A stretch of DNA of 64,000 nt from Bdellovibrionales bacterium (GTDB lineage: Bacteria; Bdellovibrionota; Bdellovibrionia; Bdellovibrionales; JAUICD01): assembly GCA_965262715.1 (NCBI GenBank), contig OZ253553.1, positions 528,830 to 592,829 of the forward strand, read 5' to 3'. Numbering within the stretch: position 1 is the first letter of the stretch; each line of letters opens with the position of its first letter. This document shows positions 4,561 through 29,505 of the stretch, in pieces. The translations under genes and the position numbers were made by a program. The notes beneath the pieces are model-generated. The model was not told the origin of the DNA and ran no database searches. It saw nothing but the letters and a program-made list of their open reading frames with translations.

Positions 4561-4762
4561 CTTTATTATTATATTTTTTGATAATAGTAAAAGTTACTTG
4601 GCTATTAATGACTTAAAAAGCATAGATAAACTTTAAAGGAGCTTTGGAACGACTGATTTAAGTGTGTAAATAATTCATAGTTTGTGATATATAACTATTT
4701 CTTTTTTACATACAAGTTGTTTGCTATTGATAATTTGGTTGAATTTTGATATAAGACCGGAC

Positions 4763-7408
4763 ATGAAGAAAAATATTCTATTGTTATTTTATTTACTGGT
4801 CTTAACAGTTGCTCTAATTTTAAAAGAGCCTGCTTCTGCTGTAGAGGAGTCTACTCTTACTGAGGCTATCTGTCGGGATGCCTTGACTACAAAGCTATCA
4901 GATGAAAACAAAGATATCGTATCTGGTGCTATTATGATTGCTCAGCAACTTCGTCCTTCATATCCTCAAGTCAACCTCTATCATATCTTCCTTGCTGCTA
5001 TGACAGAAGTGCGTGTCGATGGTGCGCCTATAACCTACACAAACCCTAACTTATTGATTTTTTTAAGAGAACAAAAGCTATTGGGGGATTTTCAAAACTT
5101 TCTTTTAAATAATTTGGGTTCAAACCGTACTCATTTAGATTCTTTGTTTGAGAAAAAATCAGATGGCACATTCATTCTCAATTGGAATACAAGCGTGCCA
5201 TTTGATGGTAATCATGTATCTAATTTTATCTATACATTTGATGTAGAAAGACTTTTGGAAGCAATGAATCAAAACAAACAGGTAGATACTAAAAATGACT
5301 TTTTTCTTTATACTTTAGAATTTGATAATCCTATTCGAAAATTTTTCTTTGATCGTTTGACAGAACATCCTACTTTTTTAGAAAGAACTCTTGGCAGATT
5401 GTTTAGATGGCTTGACCCAACTCAAGAGAGGGCTAGAAGAATTTATTTTATGTACCCTAAGTTATTAATGCCTGAGCTCATATATGATCTGCCCAAAAAA
5501 GCCATTCCAACAAACCCTATTATTGCTTTTGATCTTATAAATAGAATAAGTAGAAACATAGCCAATGATAGTGATTATACGAATCCTTCTCCTTATTTCT
5601 CTATTGATGACCTCTGGCTCTATCCTGGCTTTTTTGATTCAGACTTTGAAAGAGATGAAACACCACCTATATGGAAAATTTTAAAACGGTGGCAACCCTT
5701 AGATGACTCCAATCGCTTTATTACCTTTAGAAAAAATCACGCCCATGTATATGGTAAAATTATAGGTTTTTCAGAAGATCATACCTCTTTAGTTATAGAG
5801 AGCCTTGATGGTCAGAAGTATGTTTATCATTTTTCAATTACTTCTAGATTTCTTTTTATGAAAAAATTTAAAAAAGTTATTGGAGATGCTTTTCTTCCTT
5901 TTTATGTTTTTAGTGATGTACTACTTGCAAGCAGAAGGTCAAAAAAGCTTTTTGATATATATGAAGAGATCAGGGGTTTAACAGAATCTCCTATACCTCT
6001 AAATCAACACACTGGGCAGCTATCTATTGATCTTTTTAGAGAATTGTTTAACTTGATAACTCTCAATAATTATTTAAGGAAACACTATCCAGAGTTAGAA
6101 GCTCGCCAAGTCTCTTTAAGTGATTTTGATGAAGCTCGTCACTTTGTTTCTTTTCTAAACTCACAGGGTGAACGTGTTCCGGGCAAACTCATTGACGTGA
6201 ATGACTATAGTGTCATTGTAGAAGACTTAGATGGTCATAGAAGCCGTATAGAAGGAGAGGCATTAAACAGAGTTTCACAAGATGAAACTGTGAGACTTTT
6301 ATTCCAATATCCTCATATTGATAGTGTAGATACTCCTGAAATAGATGGCACTCGAATTGTTCAAAGACAGGGAGAGGGAGGCCTTTCTTATGCAGGATTA
6401 GAAATGTCAGGTGATCCAGCTCAAGATGTTTTTAGAAGAGCTTTGATAGCAGGTCGTTTTGAAGGAGATGAACGGTTTATTTCATTTTTCGATGAAGGTG
6501 AGAAAAAACTGGCTAAGGTATTCTCTTGGGAGGGAAAAACAATGAGACTTCAAATATATGAGGGCAATACAGATTATAGACTGACAATAGTGCCTTTACC
6601 TCTAATTAATCCTACTGATCCTAGATTTTTAAAGGATGACTCCATCTTTTCAACTGCAGCAGTTAGTCAGACGGCAAAAGATTACTTTGAACGTATTAAT
6701 TCTTTTTTGAATAGGAGAAATATCAGGCTTGCAGCAGGTGAAGATTATCAATTCTTAAGCCATTCTATTTCTATAACCAAAGAACATAATGGTAGAACTA
6801 TTGAAATGAAAGTTGATTTAACTGATCCTTATTTGAGAAAATGGATGAGAAAGGCTACAGATATTATAAAAGAAAAAACAGAGATCACACCAGGAGCACA
6901 AAAACTTACAGCTGCTCAAAGAATTCAAATTTATCGAGTCTTTTATGAGGATATTGTTCCTTTAGTAGAAATGCCTATTCGAGAAAGATATGCTTATTTT
7001 CATGATTTAATATACAATTGGTATTATTTCGAAGGAAATAGCAAGCAAAATGAATTTCAGTTTCTTGGTCATGTTCTGGATACAAAATCAGCTATTTGTA
7101 CTGATTTAAGCGCATTTGGTGTTGTTTTACTCTCTGAATATGGTTTGCATACAAGATATATGCAGACATCTCCAAAAATGATTGAAATACTTAAAAATGA
7201 AGGCATGTATGGACATGCATGGATAGGTGTTCAACGGGAGGATGGCTCTTTAGAGTTTATAGATACAAATGGTCGAATTTTCTGGAGCACAAACCTTCGT
7301 TTACTAAGAGAAGGTTATGAAGGAGATTTTTCTCATTCAACTGATGATGAGCTACTTTCTCTTTCAGAAGAACATACTCTTATGATTCCTCCTTCTTTGC
7401 CTGAATGA
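4763..7408 (+). CDS. secreted ~881-aa protein with C-terminal transglutaminase-like core (paralog 2)
   Basis: ATG 4763 with MKKNILLLFYLLVLTVALILKEPASA signal. C-terminus has SAICTDLSAFGVVLLSEYGL...YGHAWIGVQREDGSLEFIDTNG. Collinear with 1687-4323. Confidence 0.8.
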   Translation: MKKNILLLFYLLVLTVALILKEPASAVEESTLTEAICRDALTTKLSDENKDIVSGAIMIAQQLRPSYPQVNLYHIFLAAMTEVRVDGAPITYTNPNLLIFLREQKLLGDFQNFLLNNLGSNRTHLDSLFEKKSDGTFILNWNTSVPFDGNHVSNFIYTFDVERLLEAMNQNKQVDTKNDFFLYTLEFDNPIRKFFFDRLTEHPTFLERTLGRLFRWLDPTQERARRIYFMYPKLLMPELIYDLPKKAIPTNPIIAFDLINRISRNIANDSDYTNPSPYFSIDDLWLYPGFFDSDFERDETPPIWKILKRWQPLDDSNRFITFRKNHAHVYGKIIGFSEDHTSLVIESLDGQKYVYHFSITSRFLFMKKFKKVIGDAFLPFYVFSDVLLASRRSKKLFDIYEEIRGLTESPIPLNQHTGQLSIDLFRELFNLITLNNYLRKHYPELEARQVSLSDFDEARHFVSFLNSQGERVPGKLIDVNDYSVIVEDLDGHRSRIEGEALNRVSQDETVRLLFQYPHIDSVDTPEIDGTRIVQRQGEGGLSYAGLEMSGDPAQDVFRRALIAGRFEGDERFISFFDEGEKKLAKVFSWEGKTMRLQIYEGNTDYRLTIVPLPLINPTDPRFLKDDSIFSTAAVSQTAKDYFERINSFLNRRNIRLAAGEDYQFLSHSISITKEHNGRTIEMKVDLTDPYLRKWMRKATDIIKEKTEITPGAQKLTAAQRIQIYRVFYEDIVPLVEMPIRERYAYFHDLIYNWYYFEGNSKQNEFQFLGHVLDTKSAICTDLSAFGVVLLSEYGLHTRYMQTSPKMIEILKNEGMYGHAWIGVQREDGSLEFIDTNGRIFWSTNLRLLREGYEGDFSHSTDDELLSLSEEHTLMIPPSLPE

Positions 7409-7502
7409 ACTAAAACTCAAAAAGGTGTTAATGAATCTACCTTCTTTTAATATATAAAATAGTTTATAAGAGAGGTTTTTTATGGATGTGTATGAAAAAA
7501 AA

Positions 7503-7524
7503 GCCACAAATATGAATTTGTGGC
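7503..7524. terminator. bidirectional rho-independent terminator between convergent genes
   Basis: Perfect 9-bp stem gccacaaat / atttgtggc with a 4-nt loop, flanked by an A10 run (7493-7502) and ttttta (7525-7530). Confidence 0.75.
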
Positions 7525-7558
7525 TTTTTATTTTCTAAGGAGGTTATTTTTGAAAATA

Positions 7559-9400
7559 CTATGTGTTCTTAGATGTACTTAATCTGTGTGCTGCAGAGAA
7601 CTTTGTAATCCATGTTGCTTTTTCTTTAAATTTTATACCTACTTTATTCTCTGACATCCAAACAATTTTTCCAGAGAGTGTAACATCTTCTCCATCTTGT
7701 TTTGATAGAAGGATATCCACTTGAGAGCCTCTCTTTAACTGTTGAGTAGAGTTATCTATTGAGATACCAGCACCACCCTGTGAGATAGAAAATAAATTCG
7801 CAGACATAAAGTGATTGTTGAATGAGAGGTGAAGTGGAATATCTACTTCATATCTCTGCTCTCTTCTCTTAGATTGTGATGTAGCCTTCTGCTTTAAGAA
7901 TAACCAAACCATTAAAGGGAGGGCTAGCATAAAGCTAAAAAGTGCTCTTGGCAGATGAGCGCCTCGGCCGCCTTTTCCATTATTTTTGTATGATTTCATC
8001 TGATGCAAGTTTGAATACATATTATGAACGAGTCCACAACCTCCAGCCATTGATGAGGAAGATGAAAAGACACGGCTACTGTATTCTGGCATAGCAAAAC
8101 TAGGATTGTATCCTTGAGCCTTTGAAACAGCTTTTAAAGCATTTAATCTTCTTTCATTTTGTACGTAGCCATTTAAAGATGCTACAGTATCTGCAGAATT
8201 AAGTATAATTTCCTTAACTTCATATCCATTAAGCTCTGGTTGTGCATAGAGTGTTAGTGCTGTTGCGCCTGATACATAAGGGGTTGCCATACTTGTTCCA
8301 GATAAATTAGTATTTTGGTTATTCGGATATGTACTTTGAACATTCACACCAGGAGCACTCAAATGGACAGAGGTGGTACCATAATTAGAAAAATTACTTG
8401 CAAAAATATCATTGAAGGTGGTTGCAGCAACTGAAATAACATGAGGAACTGGATAGTTGGCTGGGTAAAAAGGTATGATATCATTATTAGATGCATTATT
8501 TCCTGCTGCAGCTACAAAGACAACACCAGCATTATAACTTCTTGTAACAGCTTCATGGAGTGCATTACTGTAAGCATCGTTTCCCCAAGAGTTGTTTAAG
8601 ACTTTAGCTCCATTATTAATGGCATAATCAATAGCGCCGATAGCACTGGATGTTGAGCCAACGCCATCACATCCTAAAAACTTTAATGGCATAATACAAA
8701 AGGCAGAACTCTCTGTTGCATCACCGACAACAGTTTGCTTAACAATTCCAGCAACATGGGTGCCATGTCCATCACAATCGCTCAAATCTTTATTATGATC
8801 TGTAAAGTTCCAACCATGTACATCATCATCAAAGCCATTGCCATCATTATCATAACCATCACCAGCCACTTCCTCTGTATTATTACAGATAATACCTTGA
8901 AGATCACTATGTGTGATGTCAGTTCCTGTATCAATGACTGCAATTTTTACCATTTCATTGTTAAGAGTTTGGATGGCATTTCTCGCGGCTTCTGCAAAAA
9001 TAGGATCTGGGTTGCTATATGTAGATTGGCTGAATGTTTTATCAGTATTCGTTTTACTAATAATATAGTTAGGTTCTATATATTCTATATCTGGATGATT
9101 TCCAACTTGTTCAATAATCTCTTCAGTTGATTGACCATCTTCAATTCCACTGAAGTGGTGCATACTAAAATTATTAAAGGATTGCTGTAGTGTCAGACTA
9201 ACAGAGCCTGAAACGCCTTGAAGTGTCAAATTGCCAGTATCTTCGCTTAAGCTTTGTCTAACTGATGAACTCTCAGGAGAATCCTTAAATTTGATAATAA
9301 CGTCACCTTCAACATAACCTAAAGAGGATTGCCCATATACAGTCTGAAAATTTAAAGTGACTAATAGAATAATAGATAATTTTACTAAATGATAAAACAC
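7559..9400 (-). CDS. S8 subtilisin-family serine protease fused through a TM helix to a C-terminal PilZ-like domain
   Basis: Signal peptide present. Catalytic triad motifs AVIDTGTD, HGTHVAGI and GTSMATPYVSG. TM segment ALFSFMLALPLMVWLFL. The last ~103 aa carry RREQR (RxxxR) and SISQGG (xSxxG) PilZ-type motifs. Confidence 0.85.
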   Translation of the reverse strand: MFYHLVKLSIILLVTLNFQTVYGQSSLGYVEGDVIIKFKDSPESSSVRQSLSEDTGNLTLQGVSGSVSLTLQQSFNNFSMHHFSGIEDGQSTEEIIEQVGNHPDIEYIEPNYIISKTNTDKTFSQSTYSNPDPIFAEAARNAIQTLNNEMVKIAVIDTGTDITHSDLQGIICNNTEEVAGDGYDNDGNGFDDDVHGWNFTDHNKDLSDCDGHGTHVAGIVKQTVVGDATESSAFCIMPLKFLGCDGVGSTSSAIGAIDYAINNGAKVLNNSWGNDAYSNALHEAVTRSYNAGVVFVAAAGNNASNNDIIPFYPANYPVPHVISVAATTFNDIFASNFSNYGTTSVHLSAPGVNVQSTYPNNQNTNLSGTSMATPYVSGATALTLYAQPELNGYEVKEIILNSADTVASLNGYVQNERRLNALKAVSKAQGYNPSFAMPEYSSRVFSSSSSMAGGCGLVHNMYSNLHQMKSYKNNGKGGRGAHLPRALFSFMLALPLMVWLFLKQKATSQSKRREQRYEVDIPLHLSFNNHFMSANLFSISQGGAGISIDNSTQQLKRGSQVDILLSKQDGEDVTLSGKIVWMSENKVGIKFKEKATWITKFSAAHRLSTSKNT

Positions 9401-10047: not shown

Positions 10048-13000
10048 TTAGCTGGATAAGGGAAGTTTTAAAGGAGCAGTTTGATATCCTTGGGCAAAGT
10101 CAGGTCGTCCGCCACCTTTACCATATTTTCTTAATATATCAACTGCATTGTATTTATCTGTGAGATTCTTTGTAATAGCAACCATAAGAGGAGGTTTGTC
10201 TGGATCTTCTCCAGATAGGATCACTATACCTGATTTCATTTTGTTTCTGATTTTATCTGCAATTTGCCTTAAGCATTCTCTGTCATTTGTACGGATTGTT
10301 TTTTTGACTTCTTTAACTTCATTATCTATATCTTTTGATTCTTTAATAATCTTATTAATATCTATATCCATTTCAATTCTTGATACGGTTAGTTTTTGTA
10401 TTTGTTTGTGCAAATCTTTAACTTCTTTTTTCTTTTCATTGATCCAAGTGCTAAGGTTGTTATTGATTTGAGCTTCATTTTTTGCTTCAGCCAGCTCTCT
10501 GTGGCTTTGTGAAAGGACCTCAATGGCTTTTCGTCCGGAGAGAGCTGTGATACGACGGACATTAGCACTTATGCTTTCTTCTGATGTGATTAAAAAGGCT
10601 TGAAGTTCACTTGTGTTTTTCACATGTGTTCCTCCACAAAGTTCCATGGAGGTATCTTCTCCTATTTTCACAACATGCACATTTCCTTCTGGATATTTTT
10701 CGTTGAAAAAAGCAAGAGCCCCCTTTTTTTCAGCATCTTTGAAGCTCATTATGTCTGTTGTAACAGGGAGAGTTTTTATAATTTGGTCATTAACTTGTCT
10801 TTGAATTTGCTTTTTTTGTTGATTTGTAAGAGGTTTTGGATGTGTGAAATCAAATCGCAGATAGTGATCTGTGACCAAAGATCCTTTTTGTTTTGGTTTC
10901 ATCTCCCTTTCTTCTTTTTCTCCTGCAGTGTTTATAATTTTTACCTTTTCTTTTAAAGTATCTCTTAAGATAGTGTGCAATAAGTGTGTAGCTGTGTGAT
11001 GTTTTGTTATCTCCTCTCGTCTTTCTTTGTTAATTTGTAGAAAAACTTTGTCATTAACATTTAAATGAGTTTTTACATCGATAGCATGGTAGTGCACTTC
11101 CTTATATTTTTGACAATCTGTAACTTGAGCTATTAATTTATTTGATGGATCTTTAATTTCACCTTGATCTCCAATCTGTCCTCCAGACTCTGCATAGAAA
11201 GGTGTTTGATCAAAAATAACAAAGCCTTTTTGACCAGGCTTTAGTTCTGTAATTTGTTTTTGGCCATCTGATAAACCTATGACTTGCGCGTCAGTAGATA
11301 AAGTTTTGTATCCTACAAATTTTCCAACATGATTAAGTAATTTTCCAATTGACCGATTGGTAGATTGTTCAATGATATCACTTACAAAACCTCTAAGATG
11401 TTTCTCATCTTCTTGTAAATACTTTGGTTTTGCCCTTGAAAGTTCTTGTGCTTTTCTAAGATGAGTTTCAAAAGCTTTTTCAAATACTTGATCGAACTCT
11501 TGATTAAAGCTTATCTTTTTCATCTTTCTTTTTATGAGATCTTTAGTGTTATCTTTAGAAAAACCGTGTGTTTCAAAGAGTTTAAAGGCAAACTCTCCCA
11601 GTGCTTCTGGTGTGAGAGTTTTAGATTTCATTTTTTGGTCAAGATCATCAAATTCTTTATTGAATATTTCCTCACTATCTTCAAGTTTTTTTTGAAAGGC
11701 CACTTCGATTTCTTCTGCAATTTGGTAAATTCGGCTTAGAATTTGAGACTTTTTGTTAGTTCGTTCTTGCTCTCTTCTTATAATGAGATTGATCTCTTCT
11801 CCTTCTTGGTAGAGAATCTCTTGTTGAATCTCTCTAATGAGAAGGCTCATCAACTTAGCCACATTTTTTTGGACGGGAGAGTCTTCTTGATATTGAAGGC
11901 TTTTTTGTCGATAAAACTCTTCTTGTTTTTGAAATTGATAGTGATAGATAAAAGGATCTGGGTTTTGGGTCATGATAATGTCATATAGGTAATAGCAGTC
12001 ATAAACAAAAAGAACATCAACCAATAGCACTCTTTTTAACTGAAGGAAGTTAAATGAACCAATACCAATTTGTTGAAGACAGTGCCTGACCTTTTTAAAC
12101 AACTTTCTTAAAACATAACCTCTACCTTCATTTGATGGTAATATACCGTCAAGCAATAAAAAAGCTATGCCTCTAGCATGATCTGCTATTTGACAGAGAG
12201 CTATCCGATCTTTTATTTTTCTCTCTTCATCTATCTTTATCTTCTTAGGAGAAAGAAGCCCTCTTTCTTTTTGGAACTCCTCACACACAAAATCTAGAAA
12301 AGCAGTTCTAAGAGAACCATTTTCTGCTCTCTTAAGTATATAATATATCATGTTGAAATGAAGGCTTTTCTGAAATAAATATGATGCGCTTGGAGCTCTC
12401 CACTTATGAGCATCTTCCTCATTGTTTATTTTTTCTTCTTCCTCTTTGATAATTTCTTTTATTTCACTTGACCTTTTATATAAGTCTTCTAGAAATTCCT
12501 TAATTATCTTTTTGGCTATTTCTTCTTCTACTTGCTCTTGTTTGTTTAATTGATAATGTTGGCTTTTAAAGGTTTTCCATACATCTGACTCTAGTTTGCA
12601 ATTTAATACTTTATAAAAAGTATCGATAAATAAGTCAGCTTCAAAATTACTATTTACTCTTTGGGTAACAGCTGTGAGTCTTTCTAACCCAGCCCCTGTA
12701 TCTACACAAGGGTGAGGTAGAGGTAGTCTACTACCATCAGCTTGTTGATCAAATTGCATAAAGACTAAGTTCCAAATCTCTACATCTTGCTGTCCATAAT
12801 GATAAAAGACTTCACTGCAAGGCCCGCAAGGTCCTGTATTAGCCATTTTCCAAAAATTATCACTATCTTTTTTGATAAAATCATATAAAGAACGCTTGAT
12901 ATCATTTTTGTCATTTTCCCAGATTTTTTTCCAAATATTAAAGGAATCCTCATCTTCATTAAAGACTGTCACATACAATCTATTTTTATCGATGCCTAAA

Positions 13001-13347
13001 TACTTTTGGTCAGTTAAAAACTCCCATGCAAATTCAATAGCCTCTTTTTTAAAATAATCTCCAAAGGAAAAATTGCCTAGCATTTCAAAAAAGGTATGGT
13101 GTCTGGGAGTATGACCAACTTGTTCTAAGTCATTAGCTCGAAAACATTTTTGTGCAGACACAGCTCTATTGTAAGGGAGCTTTTTAAGGCCTAAAAATAC
13201 GTCTTTAAATTGATTCATACCTGCATTTGTAAAAAATAGATCTTTACCTTCTGGAGTTAAGGGGGAGCTTTTACAGTGTTTATGACCTCTACTTTCGAAG
13301 TACTCTATAAATTTATAACATGTTTCATTACAGTTAAGGGGTTTCAT
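10048..13347 (-). CDS. alaS: alanine--tRNA ligase with large lineage-specific insertions
   Basis: Signatures FTNAGMNQFKDVFLG, RHHTFFEMLGNFSFGDYFK, TGPCGPCSEVFY, IWNLVFMQF, VDTGAGLERL, ADHARGIAFLLLDGILPSNEGRGYVLRK, editing-domain HTATHLLH and CGGTHV. Start placed at ATG 13347 (MKPLNCNETCYKFIEYF); the ORF extends in frame to 13422, so the start is uncertain. Confidence 0.9.
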   Translation of the reverse strand: MKPLNCNETCYKFIEYFESRGHKHCKSSPLTPEGKDLFFTNAGMNQFKDVFLGLKKLPYNRAVSAQKCFRANDLEQVGHTPRHHTFFEMLGNFSFGDYFKKEAIEFAWEFLTDQKYLGIDKNRLYVTVFNEDEDSFNIWKKIWENDKNDIKRSLYDFIKKDSDNFWKMANTGPCGPCSEVFYHYGQQDVEIWNLVFMQFDQQADGSRLPLPHPCVDTGAGLERLTAVTQRVNSNFEADLFIDTFYKVLNCKLESDVWKTFKSQHYQLNKQEQVEEEIAKKIIKEFLEDLYKRSSEIKEIIKEEEEKINNEEDAHKWRAPSASYLFQKSLHFNMIYYILKRAENGSLRTAFLDFVCEEFQKERGLLSPKKIKIDEERKIKDRIALCQIADHARGIAFLLLDGILPSNEGRGYVLRKLFKKVRHCLQQIGIGSFNFLQLKRVLLVDVLFVYDCYYLYDIIMTQNPDPFIYHYQFQKQEEFYRQKSLQYQEDSPVQKNVAKLMSLLIREIQQEILYQEGEEINLIIRREQERTNKKSQILSRIYQIAEEIEVAFQKKLEDSEEIFNKEFDDLDQKMKSKTLTPEALGEFAFKLFETHGFSKDNTKDLIKRKMKKISFNQEFDQVFEKAFETHLRKAQELSRAKPKYLQEDEKHLRGFVSDIIEQSTNRSIGKLLNHVGKFVGYKTLSTDAQVIGLSDGQKQITELKPGQKGFVIFDQTPFYAESGGQIGDQGEIKDPSNKLIAQVTDCQKYKEVHYHAIDVKTHLNVNDKVFLQINKERREEITKHHTATHLLHTILRDTLKEKVKIINTAGEKEEREMKPKQKGSLVTDHYLRFDFTHPKPLTNQQKKQIQRQVNDQIIKTLPVTTDIMSFKDAEKKGALAFFNEKYPEGNVHVVKIGEDTSMELCGGTHVKNTSELQAFLITSEESISANVRRITALSGRKAIEVLSQSHRELAEAKNEAQINNNLSTWINEKKKEVKDLHKQIQKLTVSRIEMDIDINKIIKESKDIDNEVKEVKKTIRTNDRECLRQIADKIRNKMKSGIVILSGEDPDKPPLMVAITKNLTDKYNAVDILRKYGKGGGRPDFAQGYQTAPLKLPLSS

Positions 13348-13424
13348 AAAGGGGTCCTTATTGGGGAGCATTTTTCTATAGTTAATTTTAATGAAATTCT
13401 TTATTCTTGTCAATCCTATCAATG

Positions 13425-13570
13425 ATTGATTATAGATATAGAAAGGACTTTTGGAAGGAGAAATTCATGATAAAATTTTTAGCAACAGGTTGTTATATAG
13501 GCCTAATTCCTAAGGCTCCATGTACTTTTGGCTGTTTAACTCTCTCGCTTTTTTCTATCATTAGGAAAAT
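13425..13570 (+). repeat. left direct repeat of the defence cassette (decayed copy of the pgpA upstream region and 5' end)
   Basis: attgattatagatata...tttttagcaacaggttgttatataggc.t.attcc.aa.gc.cca.g.acttttgg recurs at 18832-18980, roughly three quarters identical by eye with small indels. Confidence 0.8.
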
Positions 13571-13616
13571 GCTTTCAATAACATTCTTTAATTATTGGCC
13601 TCATTATCATTACTGA
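13467..13616 (+). pseudogene. truncated pgpA 5' fragment
   Basis: Encodes MIKFLATGCYIGLIPKAPCTFG..., matching the first ~25 aa of the intact PgpA at 18858 (MYAVIKFLATGCYIGLIPKAPGTFG), then diverges and stops. None of the downstream PgpA motifs are present. Confidence 0.75.
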
Positions 13617-13702
13617 GTCTTATAGCAGGGCTTTTTTTAGCTTTTTTATATACCCAGTTGTCGGGGGTCATCGAAAATATCTCTTTTGGGTTTGTTTTTA
13701 GG

Positions 13703-15541
13703 CTATAAATCGAATGTTTTTAAAAACCTAGATATTTTTCTCTCTTTTTCATCTCCCCAGGGCATTTTTCTTTTTTTAGGCCAAGTGACATATAAAAATC
13801 GCTTTGACCTAGTGAAGGCCACATACAGATTATTTTCTTCTTGCTTAAGATCAATACCCTTTTTTTGTATAGCTCGATAATCAGGGAATGTTTCATCATC
13901 CATACCTATTAGAAAGACGATATCAAACTCCTGCCCTTTCATTGTGTGAACTGTACTTAATGTAATACCTTTGTGTGGAATTGATTGATGAGTTTGGCCT
14001 AATGCCATTGCATTTTTGAACTGTAGTAATGACTTTGTGTCTGTTGTACTGGCGTATTTATTCCAATGTTTTATCAAATCATCAATGTCATTAAAGATCA
14101 TATTTCTTTCATTTTCTTCGCTATAATCAGTAAGTGTATTTTTAAAACTTTTCAAAAGATATTTTAGATTATTCCCATCATCATCTAAATTTATAACTAA
14201 CTGGATAAGAGCCTTATGTTGTTTATTATTTATAGTTGATATAATTTCTTCCAGTGATTTTTCTTTTGAGATATTTGATTTTAGTTTCTCAAGGAGTTTT
14301 CCTTTATGTAATTTATCTTGAGGATTTAATTTAACTTTAAGTGCAAGGTCAAACATATTGATTAGATCAGATTCAAATTGAACTGAACCTATTCGCATTT
14401 TATAATAAAAAGGTATACCCTTAGATTTTAATTGAGTATTGATTTGATTAAAAAGATATTTATTACGGGCAAGGATAACTATTTTTTCGTAAGTGATTTG
14501 ACCTTCAATATCTGGATGTTTTTGTATAGAGACTAGTTCATTGATTTTATCAATAATCCATAAGGCTTCTTTTTCTTCATCTTCTATGCCTTGCAATTCA
14601 AAGATACCTTGTTTCACTGTGTGAGGTATGTCTTTAGCACTAGGAAATATCTTTTTAGTAGCAGATAAAACCTCTTGAGATGAACGATAGTTTTCTTCTA
14701 GTTCTATGACTTCAGGTTTAAAGTCTTTAATAAAAAACTCGGTCATATATTTTGGTGAAGATCCATTGAAATGAAAAATGGATTGGTTAGGATCTCCAAC
14801 CATCATCACATTGTCGAATTGACCTCCTGTTAGAGCCAGCAAGAATTGATATTGGGCATTATTTAAATCTTGGGCCTCATCAATACAAATTGCATAAAAA
14901 CTACGGCGGTACAAGTCCGCCACATTTGGATATTCAATAAATAGTTTGTATGCTAGAATAAGCAGGTCATCAAAGTCTATACCATTTTGACTGCTTAATA
15001 TATCTTGATAATTTTTATAAAGAAGTATTTTTTCATCATCTTTAGATTGAGAGTCTTCTTCAAGTTTACCCATATTCCTTTTAACTTTGGCTATAAATTT
15101 CAATACTTGGTATAAAAATCTTTTTTTCTTTTTCTCATCTTTATTCCTATAAATATTTTCATAAGATGGGGTTAAATTGATAGCTTGTTCTATTAGCTCT
15201 AATCTATCATTTTCGTTTTCAAATATATGAGGCATTTTTTCTAAGCCAATAAGATATCCATGATTTCTCAATGTTTTTTGACAAAATCCATGGAATGTTC
15301 CTACAAAAACTCTTTTATCTAAAGTAGATATACCATTTAATCTTTCTTTGACTTCTTCTCCCGCTTTATGGGTAAAGGTAAGAGCAAGTATCTGCTTCTT
15401 AGTTTTATCTAATAAAATTCTCACTCGTTCTGTAAGAACTCTTGTCTTTCCACTTCCAGCACTGGCTTTGACACAAATGGGCTTATCCTCAAGGTTGACA
15501 ATACTTTTTTGAGTTTCAGATAATTCAATTTTTGCTGACAT
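13703..15541 (-). CDS. UvrD/PcrA/Rep-like SF1 helicase (GajB-like)
   Basis: Walker A ASAGSGKTRVL, CIDEAQDLN, VGTFHGFC, LEENYRSS, TVHTMKGQEFD, LYVAFTRSK. Its start overlaps the upstream OLD-like gene by 17 nt. Confidence 0.85.
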   Translation of the reverse strand: MSAKIELSETQKSIVNLEDKPICVKASAGSGKTRVLTERVRILLDKTKKQILALTFTHKAGEEVKERLNGISTLDKRVFVGTFHGFCQKTLRNHGYLIGLEKMPHIFENENDRLELIEQAINLTPSYENIYRNKDEKKKKRFLYQVLKFIAKVKRNMGKLEEDSQSKDDEKILLYKNYQDILSSQNGIDFDDLLILAYKLFIEYPNVADLYRRSFYAICIDEAQDLNNAQYQFLLALTGGQFDNVMMVGDPNQSIFHFNGSSPKYMTEFFIKDFKPEVIELEENYRSSQEVLSATKKIFPSAKDIPHTVKQGIFELQGIEDEEKEALWIIDKINELVSIQKHPDIEGQITYEKIVILARNKYLFNQINTQLKSKGIPFYYKMRIGSVQFESDLINMFDLALKVKLNPQDKLHKGKLLEKLKSNISKEKSLEEIISTINNKQHKALIQLVINLDDDGNNLKYLLKSFKNTLTDYSEENERNMIFNDIDDLIKHWNKYASTTDTKSLLQFKNAMALGQTHQSIPHKGITLSTVHTMKGQEFDIVFLIGMDDETFPDYRAIQKKGIDLKQEENNLYVAFTRSKRFLYVTWPKKRKMPWGDEKERKISRFLKTFDL

Positions 15542-18500
15542 TGGTTTTATCCTTATTATTATAGTAATCTTTTATTTTATTAAACAAATTTTCTATTTTT
15601 GGAGGAAGTTTGTTACCTTTTATAATTTCTTTTGCCACTGCCTCTCCCATTCTAATCTTATCATCTTTCATAATTTCAAGAAGTCGTTCATCATCGTAAC
15701 TTTCAACTTCTTCTTTTTTTGCAGCTTTATGTTGTTCATTCTTGCAATGAAGTGATAAATAGGCTTTCTTTATTTGCTCTTGGAAGCCATTAGAAATGAG
15801 TTGCTTTTCAAAATCATTACCATCATCCAAAAAAACAACAAACACTTTTGGATCCTTCTTTATTTTAAGTACCTTGGTTTCAACTTCTCCAACAGTATTT
15901 TGATCTGCATCACTAAAGATAAAGCAAGGTATATTTAGAGATTTAGCAAACTTTATAAAAGGAGCATAATTTTTTCCTCCAACTCCTACAAAGTTTAAAC
16001 CTATATCGGAAGGATGTTTCTGAAAGAACTTTTCTGCAAAGATAGGTAGTGCTCGAGATTCAGTTTTTCCTTCTGAAAAAACAATAAAGTTTGAAAAAAT
16101 AATCTCTCCGTGAGTATGAGTCACATGAACTTCAATTTTGCTTTCATCTTCAGATGATAATCCTGTTACTTTTCCGCAGGTTACTTGATTGCTTTTATAC
16201 AATCCTCTAATTTGCCTTATCTTTGCTTTTGCAGCTACATAGGGAGAGTGGGTTGAAATGATCTTTTGGCCTTCAATAGAATTTATTTGATGATAAAGCT
16301 GTTTTTGAGCGTTTGGATGCAAATGAGCTTCAGGCTCTTCTATTGCAAGAATTGGGAAAAACACATTGTCTTGCTCTTGGAATTTTTTTGTAAGCGATGA
16401 AATAAATGCTTTTAAAGTAAGAAGTGATGACCAACTTCTTGTTCCCATACCATGATATTCCATAGAAAAACTATCTGTTTGTTCACCATAATAAATGGAT
16501 AGCCCTTTATTTAAATCTCTTACCTTTTTTGTAAAAGGTGTGATTTCAACATTGGCTTTGTCGTTACCCATAGTTGAGTTAATTTCTCCTAGTACAATCT
16601 TGATATGTGACAAAATGGCACTGCTATCAACGGCTTTTTCATTAAGTGATTTGATTTGATCTTCAATATCTTTGATGTCTTTTTCAGTATATTCTATTTT
16701 TGAAATCATTTTCCCAAGATAAGAACTTTTAAGCTTTATGTCTTTAAGAATATCTCTTTGAGCATCGATGTAAAAGAAAGGTATTTCATCAAAATAAAAG
16801 CGGATTTTATCCCCATCATCTTTATCAAACCAATTTGTATTCTTGTCTTTAAATTTTGGCCAGCCGTTTATAGAAAATTGTTTTTTTTTAAAACTATTTG
16901 TTATTGGATCGAATTTTATTTTTGTTCTAAATGGGAACTGGTTTCTATTGGAATCATCAGGATCAGGTTTAATATTTGCTGCTTGAAATACAGATACCCA
17001 ATCATCTGTGAAGTTCTCACATATATTCCCTTCATCATCAACAGGGACAATAAGAGTATCTATTATAATTTCCTCTGAAGCAGAGTTTTCTTTTATAAAA
17101 AAATCATCCTGAGAGATAAACTGGTGATTGCCAAAAGCCAATTGCAATGCATATAGAATAGAAGACTTACCAGTATTATTTGCTCCTGTTAAAACAGTGG
17201 TTTTTTCTAAATCTATTTCAATATTTTCAAGCCCTCTAAAACCTCTAATACGAATAGTTTTGATTAAAATATCCTTTGGTTCTTGCTGCTGTATTTTTTC
17301 TTCTTTCTTTTGTTGTTCCTTCTTCTTTTCCTCTTTTTGTTCTTTTGCTTTTTCTGCTTTTATTTCATTGAAAAGTTTTGCCATATCTTGTTTTACTATA
17401 TAGTCATATCTTTTTTCAAACTGGGGATAATGATCTTTTGTAATTTTTAAGATATCTGCTATAAAGCCATTTAACTTATAGAGAGGAAAAATTAATGAAG
17501 ATAGGGCTTCTTTTGCTTGAAGGATCAGGTCTCTTAATTTGTGACCATGCTGTGTATTGGAAAGAGTGATTTTATTTGCTAAAAGAAAAGCTATATCCAA
17601 TGCATATATGGGTAACTTTGAGATAGACCTAAAAGCTTCTTGCTCTTTATTTCTACAAATTTGATAAAATCCTTTTTCATCAAATGATATGGTTTTTTCT
17701 TGAGCTATTTTTCTGAGGGGATCCATAAAAAATTTCTGCTCATAAATTTTTAAAATATGTTTGCCTGTATCAGGAGTAGGTTTTTTATCTGTTGAAGGTA
17801 CTTCGAACTCTTTATCTGTTGAAGAAATGAAACCACATTCTTTAAAAAAGCTTACAGTATTTTCAGAATTGTTCCATATATAAGAAGCTATAAAATCTTT
17901 TCTTTCTTTGAGAAGAGCACGCTGTATATTATAGATGAGATATTTTTCATCCCCATCAGAAAGTTGCCAATTGCTTTCTGATATTATTTTTGTTATAATA
18001 TCTATAAAATATTGATCTCCATTAAAGAGTTTATTAAAGAATGCCTTTTTTGTAGGTTCCGATTGGTTGTTCATATAATCATAATAAGATTGGTTAGTTA
18101 TTAGATTATTATTTGTATTTGCTATAATCCCTTCAATATATTGATCAGCTAGGCCTCTTAAAAGAATCAATCTTGTTACTGAAAGATTATTTTCGACTTG
18201 AAGATTGTGAGTAATATATCTTTCGTCTTTATCAGAAAAGGTCTGTGCTAAATGAGTATTGATTTCTTCAGATCTGTTTGGTTCTTTGAGATGAATATAT
18301 TTATTTTGATAGAGTTTGAAAATAAACTCCCCTGAAATAGGCTTTTTATTGGCTATCAGTTTATCAAGTTCTTTTTTAAGTTGTTGATTATTTTGTAAGC
18401 TTCTTGAGTGTGTTATTTGCATTTTTTTACAGATGAGATCTAAAAATTGCTTTTTTCTAACAACATCATCTCCTTTTAAAACACTCATTAGTTTTTCAAA

Positions 18501-18776
18501 AAAAGATTCTTCACTACTTCTATTGTAATAAGGAGGAAAAGGAAGAAACTCCTGACGAACTCTTGGAATATCTGAAAAAGGCAAAACCCAATCTATATCT
18601 TGGTTGTTAGAAATGCTTAGGTTAGCAATAATAGGCAAAAGCTGATCTTCAAATAAAATATCTTTATGTCCTTGTCCTTCTTCAAGTGCCTTGAAATATT
18701 CAATAAACCTTTGACGTATTTCATCACTGGTTAAATGTTTCATAATTGACCTATTTTGATTAATGCATACTTTCAC
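15525..18776 (-). CDS. OLD-family ATPase + Toprim nuclease (GajA-like) with ~500-aa N-terminal AlaRS-like extension
   Basis: C-terminal ~580 aa carry Walker A GANNTGKSS, ILAIEEPEAHLHPNAQ, ISTHSP, and Toprim FSEGKTE ... FIFSDADQ. A K/E-rich linker lies at about aa 471-503. The N-terminal region is described in findings. Start is GTG 18776 or, more likely, ATG 18743 (MKHLTSDEIRQ). Confidence 0.85.
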   Translation of the reverse strand: MKVCINQNRSIMKHLTSDEIRQRFIEYFKALEEGQGHKDILFEDQLLPIIANLSISNNQDIDWVLPFSDIPRVRQEFLPFPPYYNRSSEESFFEKLMSVLKGDDVVRKKQFLDLICKKMQITHSRSLQNNQQLKKELDKLIANKKPISGEFIFKLYQNKYIHLKEPNRSEEINTHLAQTFSDKDERYITHNLQVENNLSVTRLILLRGLADQYIEGIIANTNNNLITNQSYYDYMNNQSEPTKKAFFNKLFNGDQYFIDIITKIISESNWQLSDGDEKYLIYNIQRALLKERKDFIASYIWNNSENTVSFFKECGFISSTDKEFEVPSTDKKPTPDTGKHILKIYEQKFFMDPLRKIAQEKTISFDEKGFYQICRNKEQEAFRSISKLPIYALDIAFLLANKITLSNTQHGHKLRDLILQAKEALSSLIFPLYKLNGFIADILKITKDHYPQFEKRYDYIVKQDMAKLFNEIKAEKAKEQKEEKKKEQQKKEEKIQQQEPKDILIKTIRIRGFRGLENIEIDLEKTTVLTGANNTGKSSILYALQLAFGNHQFISQDDFFIKENSASEEIIIDTLIVPVDDEGNICENFTDDWVSVFQAANIKPDPDDSNRNQFPFRTKIKFDPITNSFKKKQFSINGWPKFKDKNTNWFDKDDGDKIRFYFDEIPFFYIDAQRDILKDIKLKSSYLGKMISKIEYTEKDIKDIEDQIKSLNEKAVDSSAILSHIKIVLGEINSTMGNDKANVEITPFTKKVRDLNKGLSIYYGEQTDSFSMEYHGMGTRSWSSLLTLKAFISSLTKKFQEQDNVFFPILAIEEPEAHLHPNAQKQLYHQINSIEGQKIISTHSPYVAAKAKIRQIRGLYKSNQVTCGKVTGLSSEDESKIEVHVTHTHGEIIFSNFIVFSEGKTESRALPIFAEKFFQKHPSDIGLNFVGVGGKNYAPFIKFAKSLNIPCFIFSDADQNTVGEVETKVLKIKKDPKVFVVFLDDGNDFEKQLISNGFQEQIKKAYLSLHCKNEQHKAAKKEEVESYDDERLLEIMKDDKIRMGEAVAKEIIKGNKLPPKIENLFNKIKDYYNNKDKTNVSKN

Positions 18777-18831
18777 TATAAAGTGCTTAACTACTTATAA
18801 AGTTTATCAAATTTCTTACTGGTTGTCATTT

Positions 18832-18980
18832 ATTGATTATAGATATAAAAAAGAAACATGTATGCTGTGATAAAGTTTTTAGCAACAGGTTGTTATATAG
18901 GCTTGATTCCAAAAGCCCCAGGCACTTTTGGGACTTTACTTGGTATTCCGCTTTCTTATCTTTTTTTATTGTTAGGAGAA
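18832..18980 (+). repeat. right direct repeat of the defence cassette (functional pgpA upstream region and 5' end)
   Basis: See 13425-13570. Confidence 0.8.
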
Positions 18981-19307
18981 TATGGCTATTACATAGCTAC
19001 TTTATTGTTTATATCTTTATCTATTGTTATTGCTGAACTTTATGATAGAACTTTAAAAGAGCATGATCATCAAACAATTGTTATTGATGAAGTAGCAGGT
19101 TATCTAGTTGCCTTTGCAGCACTGCCGTTTCAGGTGTTTTGGGTAGTGCTTGCGTTTTTGCTTTTTAGGTTTTTTGATGTTCTTAAGCCATTTCCTATCA
19201 ATCGTCTTGATCGTATGAAAGGTGGTTTAGGGATTGTTTTAGATGACCTAGGCGCTGGACTTATTACAAATGTTATTTTACAAATTTTATTTTGGCAGAT
19301 AGGTTAA
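18858..19307 (+). CDS. pgpA: phosphatidylglycerophosphatase A
   Basis: KAPGTFGTLLGIPL, VIDEVAG, FRFFDVLKPFPI and GGLGIVLDDLGAG motifs; 149 aa. Confidence 0.85.
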   Translation: MYAVIKFLATGCYIGLIPKAPGTFGTLLGIPLSYLFLLLGEYGYYIATLLFISLSIVIAELYDRTLKEHDHQTIVIDEVAGYLVAFAALPFQVFWVVLAFLLFRFFDVLKPFPINRLDRMKGGLGIVLDDLGAGLITNVILQILFWQIG

Positions 19308-19309
19308 AG

Positions 19310-19783
19310 ATGATAGAAATAGAAGTTTTTAATCTCTTAAAAAAAAATAAATGGACTGTAAGCTTTGCTGAAAGCTGTACAGGTGGGATGCTATCATCTC
19401 ACTTTACATCTGTTCCAGGTGTATCAAGTGTCTTTAAGGGAGCTATTGTCAGTTATTCTAATGAAATAAAAATCAAGCATCTACATGTGGAATCCAGCCT
19501 CTTAAAATCAAAAGGGCCATTCAATCAGGAAACAGCCCTTCAAATGGCCAAAGGCGTACGGCTTCAGATGGATACAGATTGGTCTTTGGCCACAACAGGG
19601 ATAGCAAGTGCTATACCTGGTCATGAAAAAGACACTGGTAAAGTGTATTTTGCTGTTGTAGGACTAGAAAACTTTCAGACAATGGTTTGTGAAACTTTTT
19701 CTGGTGACAGAGATGATATCCGACATCAAGCGGTGTTGAAGGCCTTACTTCTTTTTAAGGAGAGCTTGATAAAGTTGATATAG
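19310..19783 (+). CDS. CinA C-terminal domain / nicotinamide-nucleotide amidohydrolase family protein
   Basis: ESCTGGMLSSHFTSVPGVS, VSYSNEIK and ATTGIAS motifs. ATG 19310 is preferred over the TTG at 19292, which overlaps the pgpA stop. Confidence 0.8.
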   Translation: MIEIEVFNLLKKNKWTVSFAESCTGGMLSSHFTSVPGVSSVFKGAIVSYSNEIKIKHLHVESSLLKSKGPFNQETALQMAKGVRLQMDTDWSLATTGIASAIPGHEKDTGKVYFAVVGLENFQTMVCETFSGDRDDIRHQAVLKALLLFKESLIKLI

Positions 19784-20129: not shown

Positions 20130-21230
20130 ATGCAAAAAGTTAATAATACAGCAAGTCAAACAAGTCAGGAGAAGAGAAAGGCATTGGACCTTGCTATTGC
20201 TTCTATTGAAAAGCAATTTGGTAAAGGTTCAATTATGAAATTAGGAGGTGGTAAGAGCCTTTATGAGAATATCCCTGTTATTCCCACAGGCTCATTATCA
20301 CTTGATATTGCTCTTGGAATAGGTGGTATCCCAAGAGGTCGAATTGTAGAAATTTATGGACCTGAAAGCTCAGGTAAGACAACTCTAGCTTTATCGATGA
20401 TTGCAGAGGCTCAACAGCTGGGAGGTACAGCTGCTTTTGTGGATGCGGAGCATGCGCTTGATATAACTTATGCTAAAAAATTGGGTGTTCAAACATCTGA
20501 TATACTCATTTCCCAGCCAGATACAGGAGAACAGGGGTTAGATATTACAGAGACACTTGTGAGGTCTGGAGCGATTGATGTTTTGGTGGTTGATTCTGTA
20601 GCTGCGCTCACTCCAAAGGCAGAGATTGAAGGTGATATGGGTGATCACCACATGGGACTTCAAGCAAGATTAATGTCACAGGCACTTAGAAAGCTGACAG
20701 CTGTGATCAGTAGATCTCATACAACTGTTATTTTCATCAATCAAATACGAATGAAGATTGGTATGGTTTTTGGCAATCCAGAGACCACAACTGGAGGTAA
20801 TGCTCTTAAGTTTTACTCTTCTGTGCGGTTAGATGTGCGTAGAATAGGAGCTATCAAAAATGGTGATGAGGCCACTGGTAATCGAACATCTGTGAAGATT
20901 GTTAAAAATAAACTTGCTCCTCCATTTGCTCGCGTAGAATTTGATCTTATGTATGGTATAGGTATTTCAAAAGAGGGAGAGGTGGTAGACATGGCGGCTA
21001 ACAAGGATATTATTGAAAAATCTGGAGCTTGGTACAGCTACAAAAAAGAGAGGATTGGTCAAGGTCGGGAAAATGCTAAAAAATATTTAAAAGAACATCC
21101 TAATGTAATGAATGAGATATGCCAGAAGCTTTTTGAACTTCAAGGTATTACAAGGTCGTTTAGAACGACGACGGCTGAGAAAAAAGAGATGAATGGAAAA
21201 GCTTCTACAAAACAAGTTCAAGCCCATTAG
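20130..21230 (+). CDS. recA: recombinase RecA
   Basis: [50 protein letters not shown] and [29 protein letters not shown]-type core; AAGGAG SD. Confidence 0.97.
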
Positions 21231-27676: not shown

Positions 27677-27910
27677 ATGAAAAAAGGTATTGAAGAAACA
27701 GAGGTATCAAGATTTGGTTTGTTCATTAAACAAAAGCGTAAAAATAGAGGTATAACTCAAAAGGAGTTAGCTAGGCATGCAAGGGTCAGTTTTACATTGG
27801 TCAATCGTATAGAAAATGGAGATATAAAATTAAATATATCTTCTGTAAATAAAGTTTTGAAAGTTTTTGGATGCGCACTTGCCCCTGTTCGTTTAGAGAT
27901 TAAAGAATGA
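27677..27910 (+). CDS. hipB: XRE-family HTH antitoxin HipB
   Basis: 77 aa from ATG 27677. HTH segment GITQKELARHARVSFTLVNRIENG. Its stop overlaps the hipA start (ATGA). Confidence 0.8.
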   Translation: MKKGIEETEVSRFGLFIKQKRKNRGITQKELARHARVSFTLVNRIENGDIKLNISSVNKVLKVFGCALAPVRLEIKE

Positions 27911-29310
27911 AAAATATTGCAAATGAAGAGAATTATATGTCAGAGATAAAAAAAATAATAAATACAAAGAAGGCTTGGGTTTATTTAAGAGATATTCTAG
28001 CAGGGGAGCTTGAAAAATCCGATGAGGCTTCTGTAGTTTTTAAATTCACTTATTTTAAAGATTATTTAGAAAGTCAAAACCCAGAAATAGCTCGAGCTTT
28101 TCCTAAAAGAAAAGAATCTTATATCAGTTCAGATTTACACCCTTTTTTTGATAATCTTATTGTTGAAGGATGGTTATTAACATATACAGAAAAACTTTTA
28201 CATATTCATAAATTAGATCGTTTCAAACTGCTTATGGCTACAGGAAGCGCTCCTATTGGGGCTGTAAGTGTGAGACCTGTTTATAATCAACAACCTATCA
28301 ATATGACTGAAGTTCTTTTTAATAAAAACACAGAAGTTCACTTTATTAAAGAACCTAATAAGATGAGAGATACATTTCATTTTTGTCCATCTTGTTTTCG
28401 GGAATTAGGAGGGGATGAAGTGCATAGAAAGTGTACTATAGCTATGTGGGGCACAACAAGAAAGTTGAAATTAAAAATAAATAAAGATAGTCCTGATGAA
28501 ATGTTTGGATCTACTATTTATGGAGGTTCTATATCTGGTCATCAAAAAAAGGGAATGTTTAAAATCAACAGCAGGACAGGTGAATTGGTACCTACACCTG
28601 ATAGAGCAACTCATATCTTAAAGCCATCTGGACATTTACCAGAGTTGCCAGAAAATGAACATGTCACAATGGCTATTGCAAAAGCTTTGAAATTTCCTAC
28701 ACCTTCGTTTGATTTGTTGGAATTTGAAGGCATAGGGAGAGTGTTTGCCACTGCTCGCTTTGATCGCAGTTTGGATGGAATGAGATTGCCATTGATGCAA
28801 GAGGATATGTGTCAGGTTATAGGGGTTTCAAGTGATAGAAAATATGATCTAAGTTATGAGAAGATTGCAAAAGCAATTAGAAAACACAGCTTGGCGCCTT
28901 TGGTTGATCTTTATGATTTTTATCGTAGGTTTGTTTTTTGTTATCTTGTGCTTAATGGGGATATGCACTTAAAAAATTGGTCTTTACTTGAAAGTCAAAA
29001 AGAGTTAGGTAGCTTTGTATTAGCGCCCTGTTACGATCTTTTAAATACAAGAATTTTTTTATCAAGAGAGTTAACGGATATAGCTCTACAGTTGAATGGA
29101 AAAGATAGGAATCTTACTAAAAAGGATATTTCCTATTTTGGTAAAGATATTGGTCTTAGTGCTGAAACTATTGAACTTATTTTTAGCGAGCTTTCAAGCT
29201 GGTTGGAGGTGATTAAAAAATACATAAATTTGTGTTTGCTTAGTAAGAAGTCAAAAGAAGCTTACCTTGAAGGTGTTTATAAAAGGTATAACATTTTATT
29301 AAAGAAATAA
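27907..29310 (+). CDS. hipA: HipA-family serine/threonine kinase toxin
   Basis: MQEDMCQVIGVSSDRKY and NGDMHLKNWSLL match the HipA C-terminal kinase motifs. N-terminal coupling region present. CxxC...HxxC element FCPSCFRELGGDEVHRKC. Confidence 0.8.
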   Translation: MKNIANEENYMSEIKKIINTKKAWVYLRDILAGELEKSDEASVVFKFTYFKDYLESQNPEIARAFPKRKESYISSDLHPFFDNLIVEGWLLTYTEKLLHIHKLDRFKLLMATGSAPIGAVSVRPVYNQQPINMTEVLFNKNTEVHFIKEPNKMRDTFHFCPSCFRELGGDEVHRKCTIAMWGTTRKLKLKINKDSPDEMFGSTIYGGSISGHQKKGMFKINSRTGELVPTPDRATHILKPSGHLPELPENEHVTMAIAKALKFPTPSFDLLEFEGIGRVFATARFDRSLDGMRLPLMQEDMCQVIGVSSDRKYDLSYEKIAKAIRKHSLAPLVDLYDFYRRFVFCYLVLNGDMHLKNWSLLESQKELGSFVLAPCYDLLNTRIFLSRELTDIALQLNGKDRNLTKKDISYFGKDIGLSAETIELIFSELSSWLEVIKKYINLCLLSKKSKEAYLEGVYKRYNILLKK

Positions 29311-29340
29311 AAAATATCAATTATTATTTATACAAAGTTA

Positions 29341-29505
29341 TTTTCCGGGAAACAGGCAACCCGGCAGTCAGTTTCCGGGATCCATTCAGTCCATTCTTGA
29401 GAGCTAGATTATAGTTTATCTAAAAAGATATAGATGAAACTTTCTACTTTCTTAATTCCTAAATCCCGGAGTTCAGTTTCACAGAGACCGGATTCCGGGT
29501 AAAAA
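29341..29505. repeat. GC-rich palindromic repeat, split into two halves by an ~80-bp AT-rich insert
   Basis: ttttccgggaaacaggcaacccggcagtcagtttccgggatcc ... aaatcccggagttcagtttcacagagaccggattccgggtaaaaa. Confidence 0.7.

Follow-up and report, generated by a model that had tools for sequence, protein, structure and literature searches.

The 64-kb stretch of Bdellovibrionales DNA analysed here (hereafter the window) carries, between the essential housekeeping genes alaS and pgpA, a two-gene cassette that we assign to the Gabija anti-phage defence systems. The alanine--tRNA ligase gene alaS (10048..13347, minus strand), whose product AlaRS matches PF01411 (1.5e-126), tRNA_SAD and DHHA1, probably starts at the ATG at 13347 (MKPLNCNETCYKFIEYFESRGHK...) and borders on an intergenic module termed type S (13348..13466), the putative native bidirectional promoter region of alaS and pgpA. 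The module is followed by pgpA' (13467..13616, plus strand), a 49-codon open reading frame (ORF) with homology to PgpA and a frame break, which we regard as a pseudogene fragment and refer to as the stub. Beyond it lie gajB (13703..15541, minus strand), encoding a UvrD-like superfamily 1 (SF1) helicase of 612 amino acids (aa), and gajA, whose full ORF (15525-18743, minus strand, start ATG at 18743) encodes a product of 1072 aa. The gajA core (15525..17276, minus strand, fusion residues ~490-1072) specifies an ABC-type ATPase and TOPRIM nuclease of OLD family class 2, and the front part (17292..18743, minus strand) is an N-terminal extension of ~484 aa, named Next, with an AlaRS-like head, an all-alpha body, a helical motif and a K/E-rich linker. 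A second intergenic module, type G (18744..18857), recognised by module alignment and promoter scan as a paralogous copy of the bidirectional promoter region, separates gajA from an intact pgpA (phosphatidylglycerophosphatase A; 18858..19307, plus strand, 149 aa, PF04608 5.6e-42). The most probable reading, in our view, is that segmental duplication within the divergent alaS/pgpA promoter region gave rise to a Gabija locus that is resident in, and conserved across, the clade.

GajA was recognised by the PADLOC model PDLC00067 (E=3.9e-201, profile positions 2-600 of 604, ORF aa 502-1072), which covers only the last ~570 residues of the 1072-aa protein, and its core also matches the Pfam families AAA_15, DUF2813 and OLD-like_TOPRIM. 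In comparison with the solved OLD nucleases 6p74 and 6nk8, the Walker A motif (GANNTGKSS), the EEPEAHLHP motif, the TOPRIM glutamate (FSEGKTE) and the DxD motif (FSDAD) are all intact. GajB was recognised by PDLC00132 (E=1e-229) and by the UvrD-helicase and UvrD_C families, and PcrA/UvrD structures match it at 1e-48 to 1e-50. The start of gajB (15541) overlaps the stop of gajA (15525-15527) by 17 nucleotides (nt) in the same orientation, such that an ATPase-TOPRIM GajA and an adjacent, co-oriented GajB are both present. Because of the GajA and GajB model matches, the intact ATPase and TOPRIM motifs and the overlapping genes, the cassette is a Gabija system by every criterion that can be put to a sequence. 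An earlier, sequence-only reading of this DNA, made without database searches, had proposed a defence cassette between alaS and pgpA, which is borne out by these assignments, and had described its larger gene as OLD-like; the family was correctly named, but with its ~484-aa N-terminal extension this is no ordinary gene of that type.

In Bacillus cereus Gabija, GajA is a nucleotide-inhibited, DNA-nicking enzyme that acts within a GajA4:GajB4 complex (PMC8136825, PMC10781630), and by analogy, defence by the window locus should proceed as in the characterised system. Like Gabija of Bacillus cereus VD045, where GajA is a class 2 OLD nuclease with a UvrD-like partner, the locus is a two-gene operon of an ATPase-TOPRIM GajA and an SF1 UvrD/PcrA-like GajB, and both proteins fit their PADLOC models end to end. 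It differs in that GajA carries the extra ~484-aa N-terminal domain, compared with 604 positions in the reference GajA subfamily model, and in that the locus is tandemly iterated in the clade of the window, each unit having a duplicated housekeeping promoter module. The window copy of Next falls outside all PADLOC, Pfam and NCBIfam defence models. A literature search found no report of a GajA-AlaRS fusion, an absence that is not proof of novelty.

The cassette is flanked by direct repeats. A repeat search of the window returned a 29-nt upstream block (13419-13447 and 18826-18854, 86% identical) and a 71-nt coding block (13468-13538 and 18868-18938, 85% identical), the two repeat families sharing a spacing of ~5.4 kb in direct orientation. 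Local alignment joined both blocks (13419-13531 vs 18826-18931; 106 ungapped columns, 81% identity, one 7-nt indel) with a score of 95, compared with 23.6 ± 2.4 and a maximum of 31 in 200 shuffles. An exact 27-nt core (TTTTTAGCAACAGGTTGTTATATAGGC) occurs twice in the 64 kb, where 0 occurrences are expected by chance; it falls within the most conserved PgpA codons, and the similarity runs for ~300 nt on a diverged background. In the left copy, codons 1-22 of the stub (MIKFLATGCYIGLIPKAPCTFG) encode 21 of 22 residues identical to PgpA residues 4-25, after which an 11-nt deletion shifts the frame and weak similarity persists until ~13570. The ~145-bp segment which the sequence-only reading had placed at 13425-13570 and 18832-18980, in direct orientation, is thus real, but the repeat is longer than claimed.

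Leftward, the repeat takes in ~23-27 codons at the start of both alaS (13278-13347) and gajA (18663-18743), and the DNA of these two heads aligns with a local score of 40 (shuffles 18.3 ± 3.2; 0/500 as high). The alaS promoter is likewise part of the duplication: a promoter scan found the promoter-like site TTGACA-17-TAAAAT (13413->13385, minus strand, 11 of 12 consensus positions) upstream of alaS and, at the homologous position, ATGACA-17-TG-TAAACT (18829->18801, minus strand) upstream of gajA. Because of the head alignment and these paralogous promoter-like sites, we read the duplicated module (~300 nt) as alaS 5' head, bidirectional promoter and pgpA 5' end. Alignments place its left copy, composed of the alaS head (minus strand), the intergenic part and the pgpA' stub, at 13278..13570 (plus strand), and its right copy, composed of the alaS-like head of gajA (minus strand), the intergenic part and the true pgpA 5' end, at 18663..18980 (plus strand). 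The view that the repeat duplicates the pgpA 5' end was therefore correct yet incomplete, as the alaS promoter and 5' coding region were copied too, whereas the identification of the right copy as the genuine pgpA 5' end is confirmed by the PF04608 match, and the claim of an intact target gene on one side by the whole pgpA at 18858-19307. Gene calls also agree that only the OLD-like and UvrD-like genes lie between the copies.

For comparison, six long-read metagenome contigs (L120-L125) were reached through a search for GajA homologues and analysed together with the window, giving seven genomes. Compared with the window, their PgpA is 85-94% identical, their AlaRS 81-91% and their RecA 86-94%; searches for close relatives via PgpA gave at best 53% in species-representative genomes and 52% in JGI metagenomes, and an exact-sequence look-up of PgpA returned no match. 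The site is occupied in all seven clade members (6/6 related contigs), with the common architecture pgpA <- IG -> [Next::gajA -> gajB -> pgpA' stub <- IG ->] x n -> alaS, IG being the intergenic module. The copy number n is one in the window, L120, L121 and L124, two in L122 and L123, and three in L125, where one unit is degenerate. Each cassette is bounded by a pgpA stub, an IG and an AlaRS-like head, stubs of 22-72 codons following every cassette in the relatives, and the cassettes are of two types in varying order (type A, 66-79% core identity to the window; type B, 48-54%). An alignment of 18 modules revealed two paralogous IG types: type S always adjoins alaS, an orthologue being present there in 7/7 genomes, and type G always precedes Next::gajA, interior boundaries included.

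The two types also differ in the pgpA start that they carry. The type S stub has a strong Shine-Dalgarno sequence (GGAAGGAG in the window), an ATG and an IKFLAT start, and as this start resembles pgpA of the distant relative L005, the ancestral start of pgpA is probably the one kept in the stub on the alaS side; the functional gene of today begins in the type G copy, with a MYAV head. In all seven stubs next to alaS, both a strong Shine-Dalgarno sequence and a start codon are preserved (13440-13470 in the window), despite frames that are broken at different places. Transcription from the retained stub promoter would run antisense into the gajB 3' end, and a regulatory role is possible.

Over codons 2-22, the pgpA copies of the window differ at 9 sites, 7 of which are third positions, with one amino acid changed, and none of 20,000 random simulations was as synonymous. 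A simple xenologous reading of this synonymous divergence, with the left copy stemming from a foreign functional pgpA, was considered and dropped, as comparison of 18 pgpA copies showed orthologous stubs, nonsynonymous changes, frame breaks and sporadic gene conversion. The window stub is closest to an orthologous stub in L125 (L125_frag3, 91%) rather than to its own pgpA (85%), interior stubs of L121 and L123 (L123_frag1) are near-identical to their own pgpA (100% and 98%, respectively), and stubs show nonsynonymous changes and frame breaks. These three observations indicate that the stubs are old pseudogene fragments, which would have been partly homogenised by gene conversion or by recent unequal crossing-over. 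The stop of the left copy after ~50 codons, as noted in the sequence-only reading, is found in the 49-codon ORF with its broken frame, but simple decay in place does not fit the closer match to the L125 stub. The cassettes themselves appear mosaic, because gajB tracks the host tree (the window-L125 pair has the lowest synonymous divergence, dS 0.25), whereas the gajA core departs from it (dS 0.68 for the same pair).

Some array units of L125 and L123 depart from the common arrangement in ways that may be either real decay or errors of low-coverage assembly. In L125, the first unit has a 700-aa GajA without Next (5693-7795), and a stand-alone 478-aa Next ORF is followed by a gajB 3' remnant (15943-17379); in L123, Next and the GajA core are separate ORFs (15464-19060). 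Long GajA proteins from L123, L124 and L125 (P0003, P0005 and P0007) contain an additional insert of ~70 aa (…LHLDFLQATEEKRKSIVESYKKTF…NQWLLLNKG) between Next and the core, which is missing in the window protein. Other genes in the alaS/pgpA gap are a 503-aa N6_N4 methyltransferase-like protein with three ORFs of unknown kind beside pgpA in L122 (700-4400), and a DUF8196 protein of 228 aa that separates gajB from the stub in L121 (12193-12879). In L123 (2400-9470), a truncated pgpA forms a fusion with a DDE transposase ORF, and a block of TrbI, FtsK/SpoIIIE and resolvase/recombinase genes lies just beyond, abutting the Gabija array.

We then turn to the front domain of GajA. Next starts with MKHLTSDEIRQRFIEYFK..GHK, an AlaRS-type N-terminus with 13 of 27 residues identical to the head of the window's own AlaRS, and its helical motif IAFLLANKITLSNTQHGHKLRDL aligns with an AlaRS motif; head and helical region (Next ~353-438 vs clade AlaRS ~356-432) stand in the same order at near-equal spacing. 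A profile built from 10 Next copies and run against all PDB sequences retrieved hardly anything but AlaRS (E = 8e-6 to 1e-3), the matches falling on the head and the helical tRNA-recognition region, and hhalign gave 94.5% probability for Next versus the clade's own AlaRS. PF01411 is matched by six of the 10 copies (best 1.9e-12), the window copy having no PF01411 match at E<=1 and no Pfam match. In an exhaustive search of 1.84 billion representative proteins, Next had five strong matches, all from this clade, and 10 of 10 tested weak matches beyond it were AlaRS. The possibility of overprinting, with the middle of Next being alaS in another frame, was ruled out, the AlaRS similarity lying only in the real frame.

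Next resembles AlaRS (PF01411/TIGR00344) in having the head and helical region of its N-terminal aminoacylation and tRNA-recognition part, but the class II antiparallel beta-sheet core (motifs 1-3) is missing from the structural model: AlphaFold, with only eight sequences, predicts a compact all-alpha fold (predicted local distance difference test, pLDDT, 76.5; predicted template modelling score, pTM, 0.77; blocks of pLDDT >90). A fold search of the PDB gave local, statistically weak matches, of which only those to AlaRS had probability >0.4, and a Foldseek search against viral structures found nothing. The score against TIGR00344 is 17 bits, for a cut-off of 457. All of this identifies Next, on sequence and predicted fold, as derived from AlaRS, yet not a synthetase, with its catalytic core lost, in other words a derived pseudo-domain. 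The ratio of nonsynonymous to synonymous substitution (dN/dS) is 0.52-0.59 for Next, 0.25-0.30 for the GajA core, 0.16 for GajB and ~0.1 for housekeeping genes; ~470 codons are open in 10/10 Next copies, in DNA of ~30% GC, and the copies are 50-71% identical at the amino acid level with ~90 invariant columns across the 10. Next is under moderate purifying selection. That it modulates or targets GajA, e.g., by binding nucleic acid, tRNA or protein, is speculative.

How the repeats arose can be weighed against two other explanations. The intergenic DNA being AT-rich, the repeat might be suspected to be low-complexity sequence that matches by chance, since the region has ~31% GC and numerous short spurious repeats. 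The alignment score lies far above that of shuffles, the exact core has no expected occurrence, the left copy encodes 21 of 22 PgpA residues, and the pgpA stub is present in all relatives; we count this explanation as already refuted, its chance being virtually nil. The other explanation is a remnant of a site-specific integrative element: an integrase-bearing element would have entered at the pgpA 5' end with a replacement pgpA 5' end in its attP, the repeats would be attL and attR, and the integrase would have been lost later. Genomic islands that integrate into a gene 5' end and restore it are known, e.g., the islands of dusA-specific integrases, as are integrase-less cis-mobilizable elements (CIMEs) flanked by att repeats. 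The window locus resembles them in that its repeats duplicate the target 5' end, with an intact pgpA regenerated on one side, a truncated copy on the other and defence cargo between. In favour of this explanation, the repeats share a 27-nt identical stretch, seven of nine differences lie at third positions, as expected of two functional pgpA alleles with separate origins, and L123 has resolvase/recombinase, TrbI and FtsK genes just past pgpA. Yet those genes stand on the other side of pgpA, together with the DDE transposase that disrupts it, and represent a separate event. None of the 36 window ORFs of at least 150 aa matches an integrase or transposase Pfam family, no recombinase genes lie inside the cassette regions of the seven loci, and a search of the window returned no tRNA and no Rfam RNA, in agreement with the earlier remark that integrase, transposase and tRNA are absent. 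The module is ~300 nt or more, with two gene starts (including the alaS head) and the bidirectional promoter, and its two diverged paralogous types hardly resemble a short, identical att core between unrelated arms. The comparison of empty and occupied sites suggested by the sequence-only reading found close relatives occupied throughout; the distant relatives do differ, with recX between alaS and pgpA in L005 and recX plus pilT in L003, on account of which both were rejected as empty sites, so that no clean empty alaS-pgpA site was found among the six related contigs or L003 and L005. Next::GajA occurs nowhere else among 5.8e9 protein clusters and 1.84e9 representative proteins, and the locus is fixed at one site throughout the clade. 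Integrase-mediated insertion is unlikely because of the missing recombinase, the missing empty site, the long diverged repeats and a cassette never seen elsewhere, and we judge a relic of an integrative element to be very improbable. The insertion regenerating its target that the earlier reading favoured is thus not supported, with the same module at every cassette boundary, all relatives occupied and no recombinase accompanying the cassette; its own alternative, a local duplication holding the cassette, fits the data better. The locus is most likely an old, clade-fixed defence array rather than a recent integrase-driven insertion.

The same architecture would also be compatible with different roles of Next. 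It might be a functionless translated relic that merely supplies gajA with a promoter, ribosome-binding site and start codon from alaS (5' capture), a view to which its evolution ~2x faster than that of the GajA core and 5x faster than that of housekeeping genes, the loss of the AlaRS catalytic core, the GajA without Next at the first array position of L125 and the separate Next ORFs in L123 and L125 would all be congenial. However, the 10 copies remain open over lengths at which random frames would have closed within tens of codons, dN/dS is clearly below 1, the compact all-alpha prediction is confident although made from eight sequences, the invariant columns persist, and the length is conserved although a pure leader could shrink at no cost; we therefore regard a mere relic as unlikely. 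At the opposite end, Next could be a functional sensor or "integrated decoy", a catalytically dead AlaRS front end that binds tRNA(Ala)-like RNA or an AlaRS-targeting phage factor, so that an attack on translation would feed into Gabija activation or into the distinction of self from non-self, with the alaS/pgpA promoter modules simultaneously serving as a recombinase-free cassette-shuffling device that diversifies the array. We give this elaborate proposal quite a low chance.

Under the segmental-duplication origin that we favour, the repeating unit consists of a bidirectional promoter copy, gajA joined in frame to 5' coding sequence derived from alaS, then gajB and a pgpA 5' stub, and a single unit yields the order in the window, alaS <- IG_S -> pgpA' | gajB <- gajA::Next <- IG_G -> pgpA. 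The founding event may have been a tandem duplication whose junction held gajAB, or a single crossover of Campbell type involving a circle with the alaS'-IG-pgpA' segment; both routes would give the same product and are indistinguishable here, and either would predate the sampled clade, throughout whose history the locus would then have been kept. Intact alaS and intact pgpA would remain at the array ends, gajA-gajB would be transcribed from the paralogue of the alaS promoter and translated from an alaS-derived start, and the alaS-derived Next would have lost the aminoacylation core and survived as a folded all-alpha domain. The direct repeats of ~300-450 bp would then be substrates for RecA-type unequal crossing-over and gene conversion, by which arrays could expand, contract and be shuffled; such repeat recombination would account for arrays of one to three cassettes, for the varied order of cassette types and for mosaic cassettes. 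From E. coli and Vibrio pan-genomes, hotspots of defence islands are known that lie between core genes and are swapped through homologous recombination in these flanking genes; they share with this locus a variable number and type of cassettes at one conserved position, the lack of mobility genes and mosaic evolution. In the window clade, by contrast, the putative recombination substrates are internal repeats derived from the 5' ends and promoter of the flanking genes, and all cassettes are Gabija, with no mixture of systems.

Some points weigh against this reconstruction. The relatives are low-coverage (2-4x) long-read contigs with frameshifts, and faulty assembly may explain some array details, namely the split genes in L122 and L123; as no clean empty site was found, the founding event is beyond reconstruction. 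The promoter-like sites are matches to a consensus only, and such sites are no more numerous than in shuffled sequence. Over its middle ~340 aa, Next shows no similarity that could be detected either to the class II core or to another frame of alaS, so that we infer a contiguous alaS origin of the entire extension from the collinear head and helical motif, and recombination between the repeats from the patterns described above.

Gabija is among the commonest bacterial anti-phage systems, and debate continues over how it distinguishes self from non-self. A naturally occurring GajA whose large additional domain comes from an essential translation enzyme provides a handle on how sensing or regulation can be extended, and clearly illustrates how a defence gene can exapt both the 5' half and the promoter of a housekeeping neighbour. 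What appears new compared with described Gabija is the AlaRS-derived N-terminal domain and the tandem architecture with a duplicated housekeeping promoter per unit. This architecture shows how a defence array may be built and reshuffled without a dedicated recombinase, each cassette having a copy of a housekeeping bidirectional promoter and ending in a stub of the neighbouring gene. For annotation, the lesson is that a defence cassette surrounded by repeats and gene-start stubs is not necessarily a mobile element. The domain fusion comes as a surprise, as does an array free of recombinases; the clade itself is small and uncultured.

Further observations concern the neighbouring genes. The AlaRS of this clade is ~1099 aa long, ~220 aa beyond the usual length, owing to clade-specific insertions: PF01411 is split into three stretches by large, apparently helical K/E-rich insertions (~aa 270-380 and 450-700), which are conserved in L121, L124 and L125. 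Directly downstream of alaS, a subtilase (Peptidase_S8) with a C-terminal PilZ domain (7559-9400) is encoded, and the fusion is kept in all relatives. On the other side, pgpA is followed by cinA (19292-19783; CinA 1.2e-45) and recA (20130-21230; RecA 1.2e-135). Farther away, three very large ORFs had no Pfam match at E<=1e-5, two of them adjacent and of similar size (1645-4323, 892 aa; 4721-7408, 895 aa) and the third at 41718-45188 (1156 aa). Lastly, a 257-bp tandem repeat of 14.3 copies at 98% identity (29739-33419), whose units have internal inverted repeats, sits in a 4.2-kb stretch (29310-33547) in which all frames lack ORFs of 50 aa or more and Rfam gave no match, flanked by a hipA-like gene (27907-29310) and dnaJ/dnaK.

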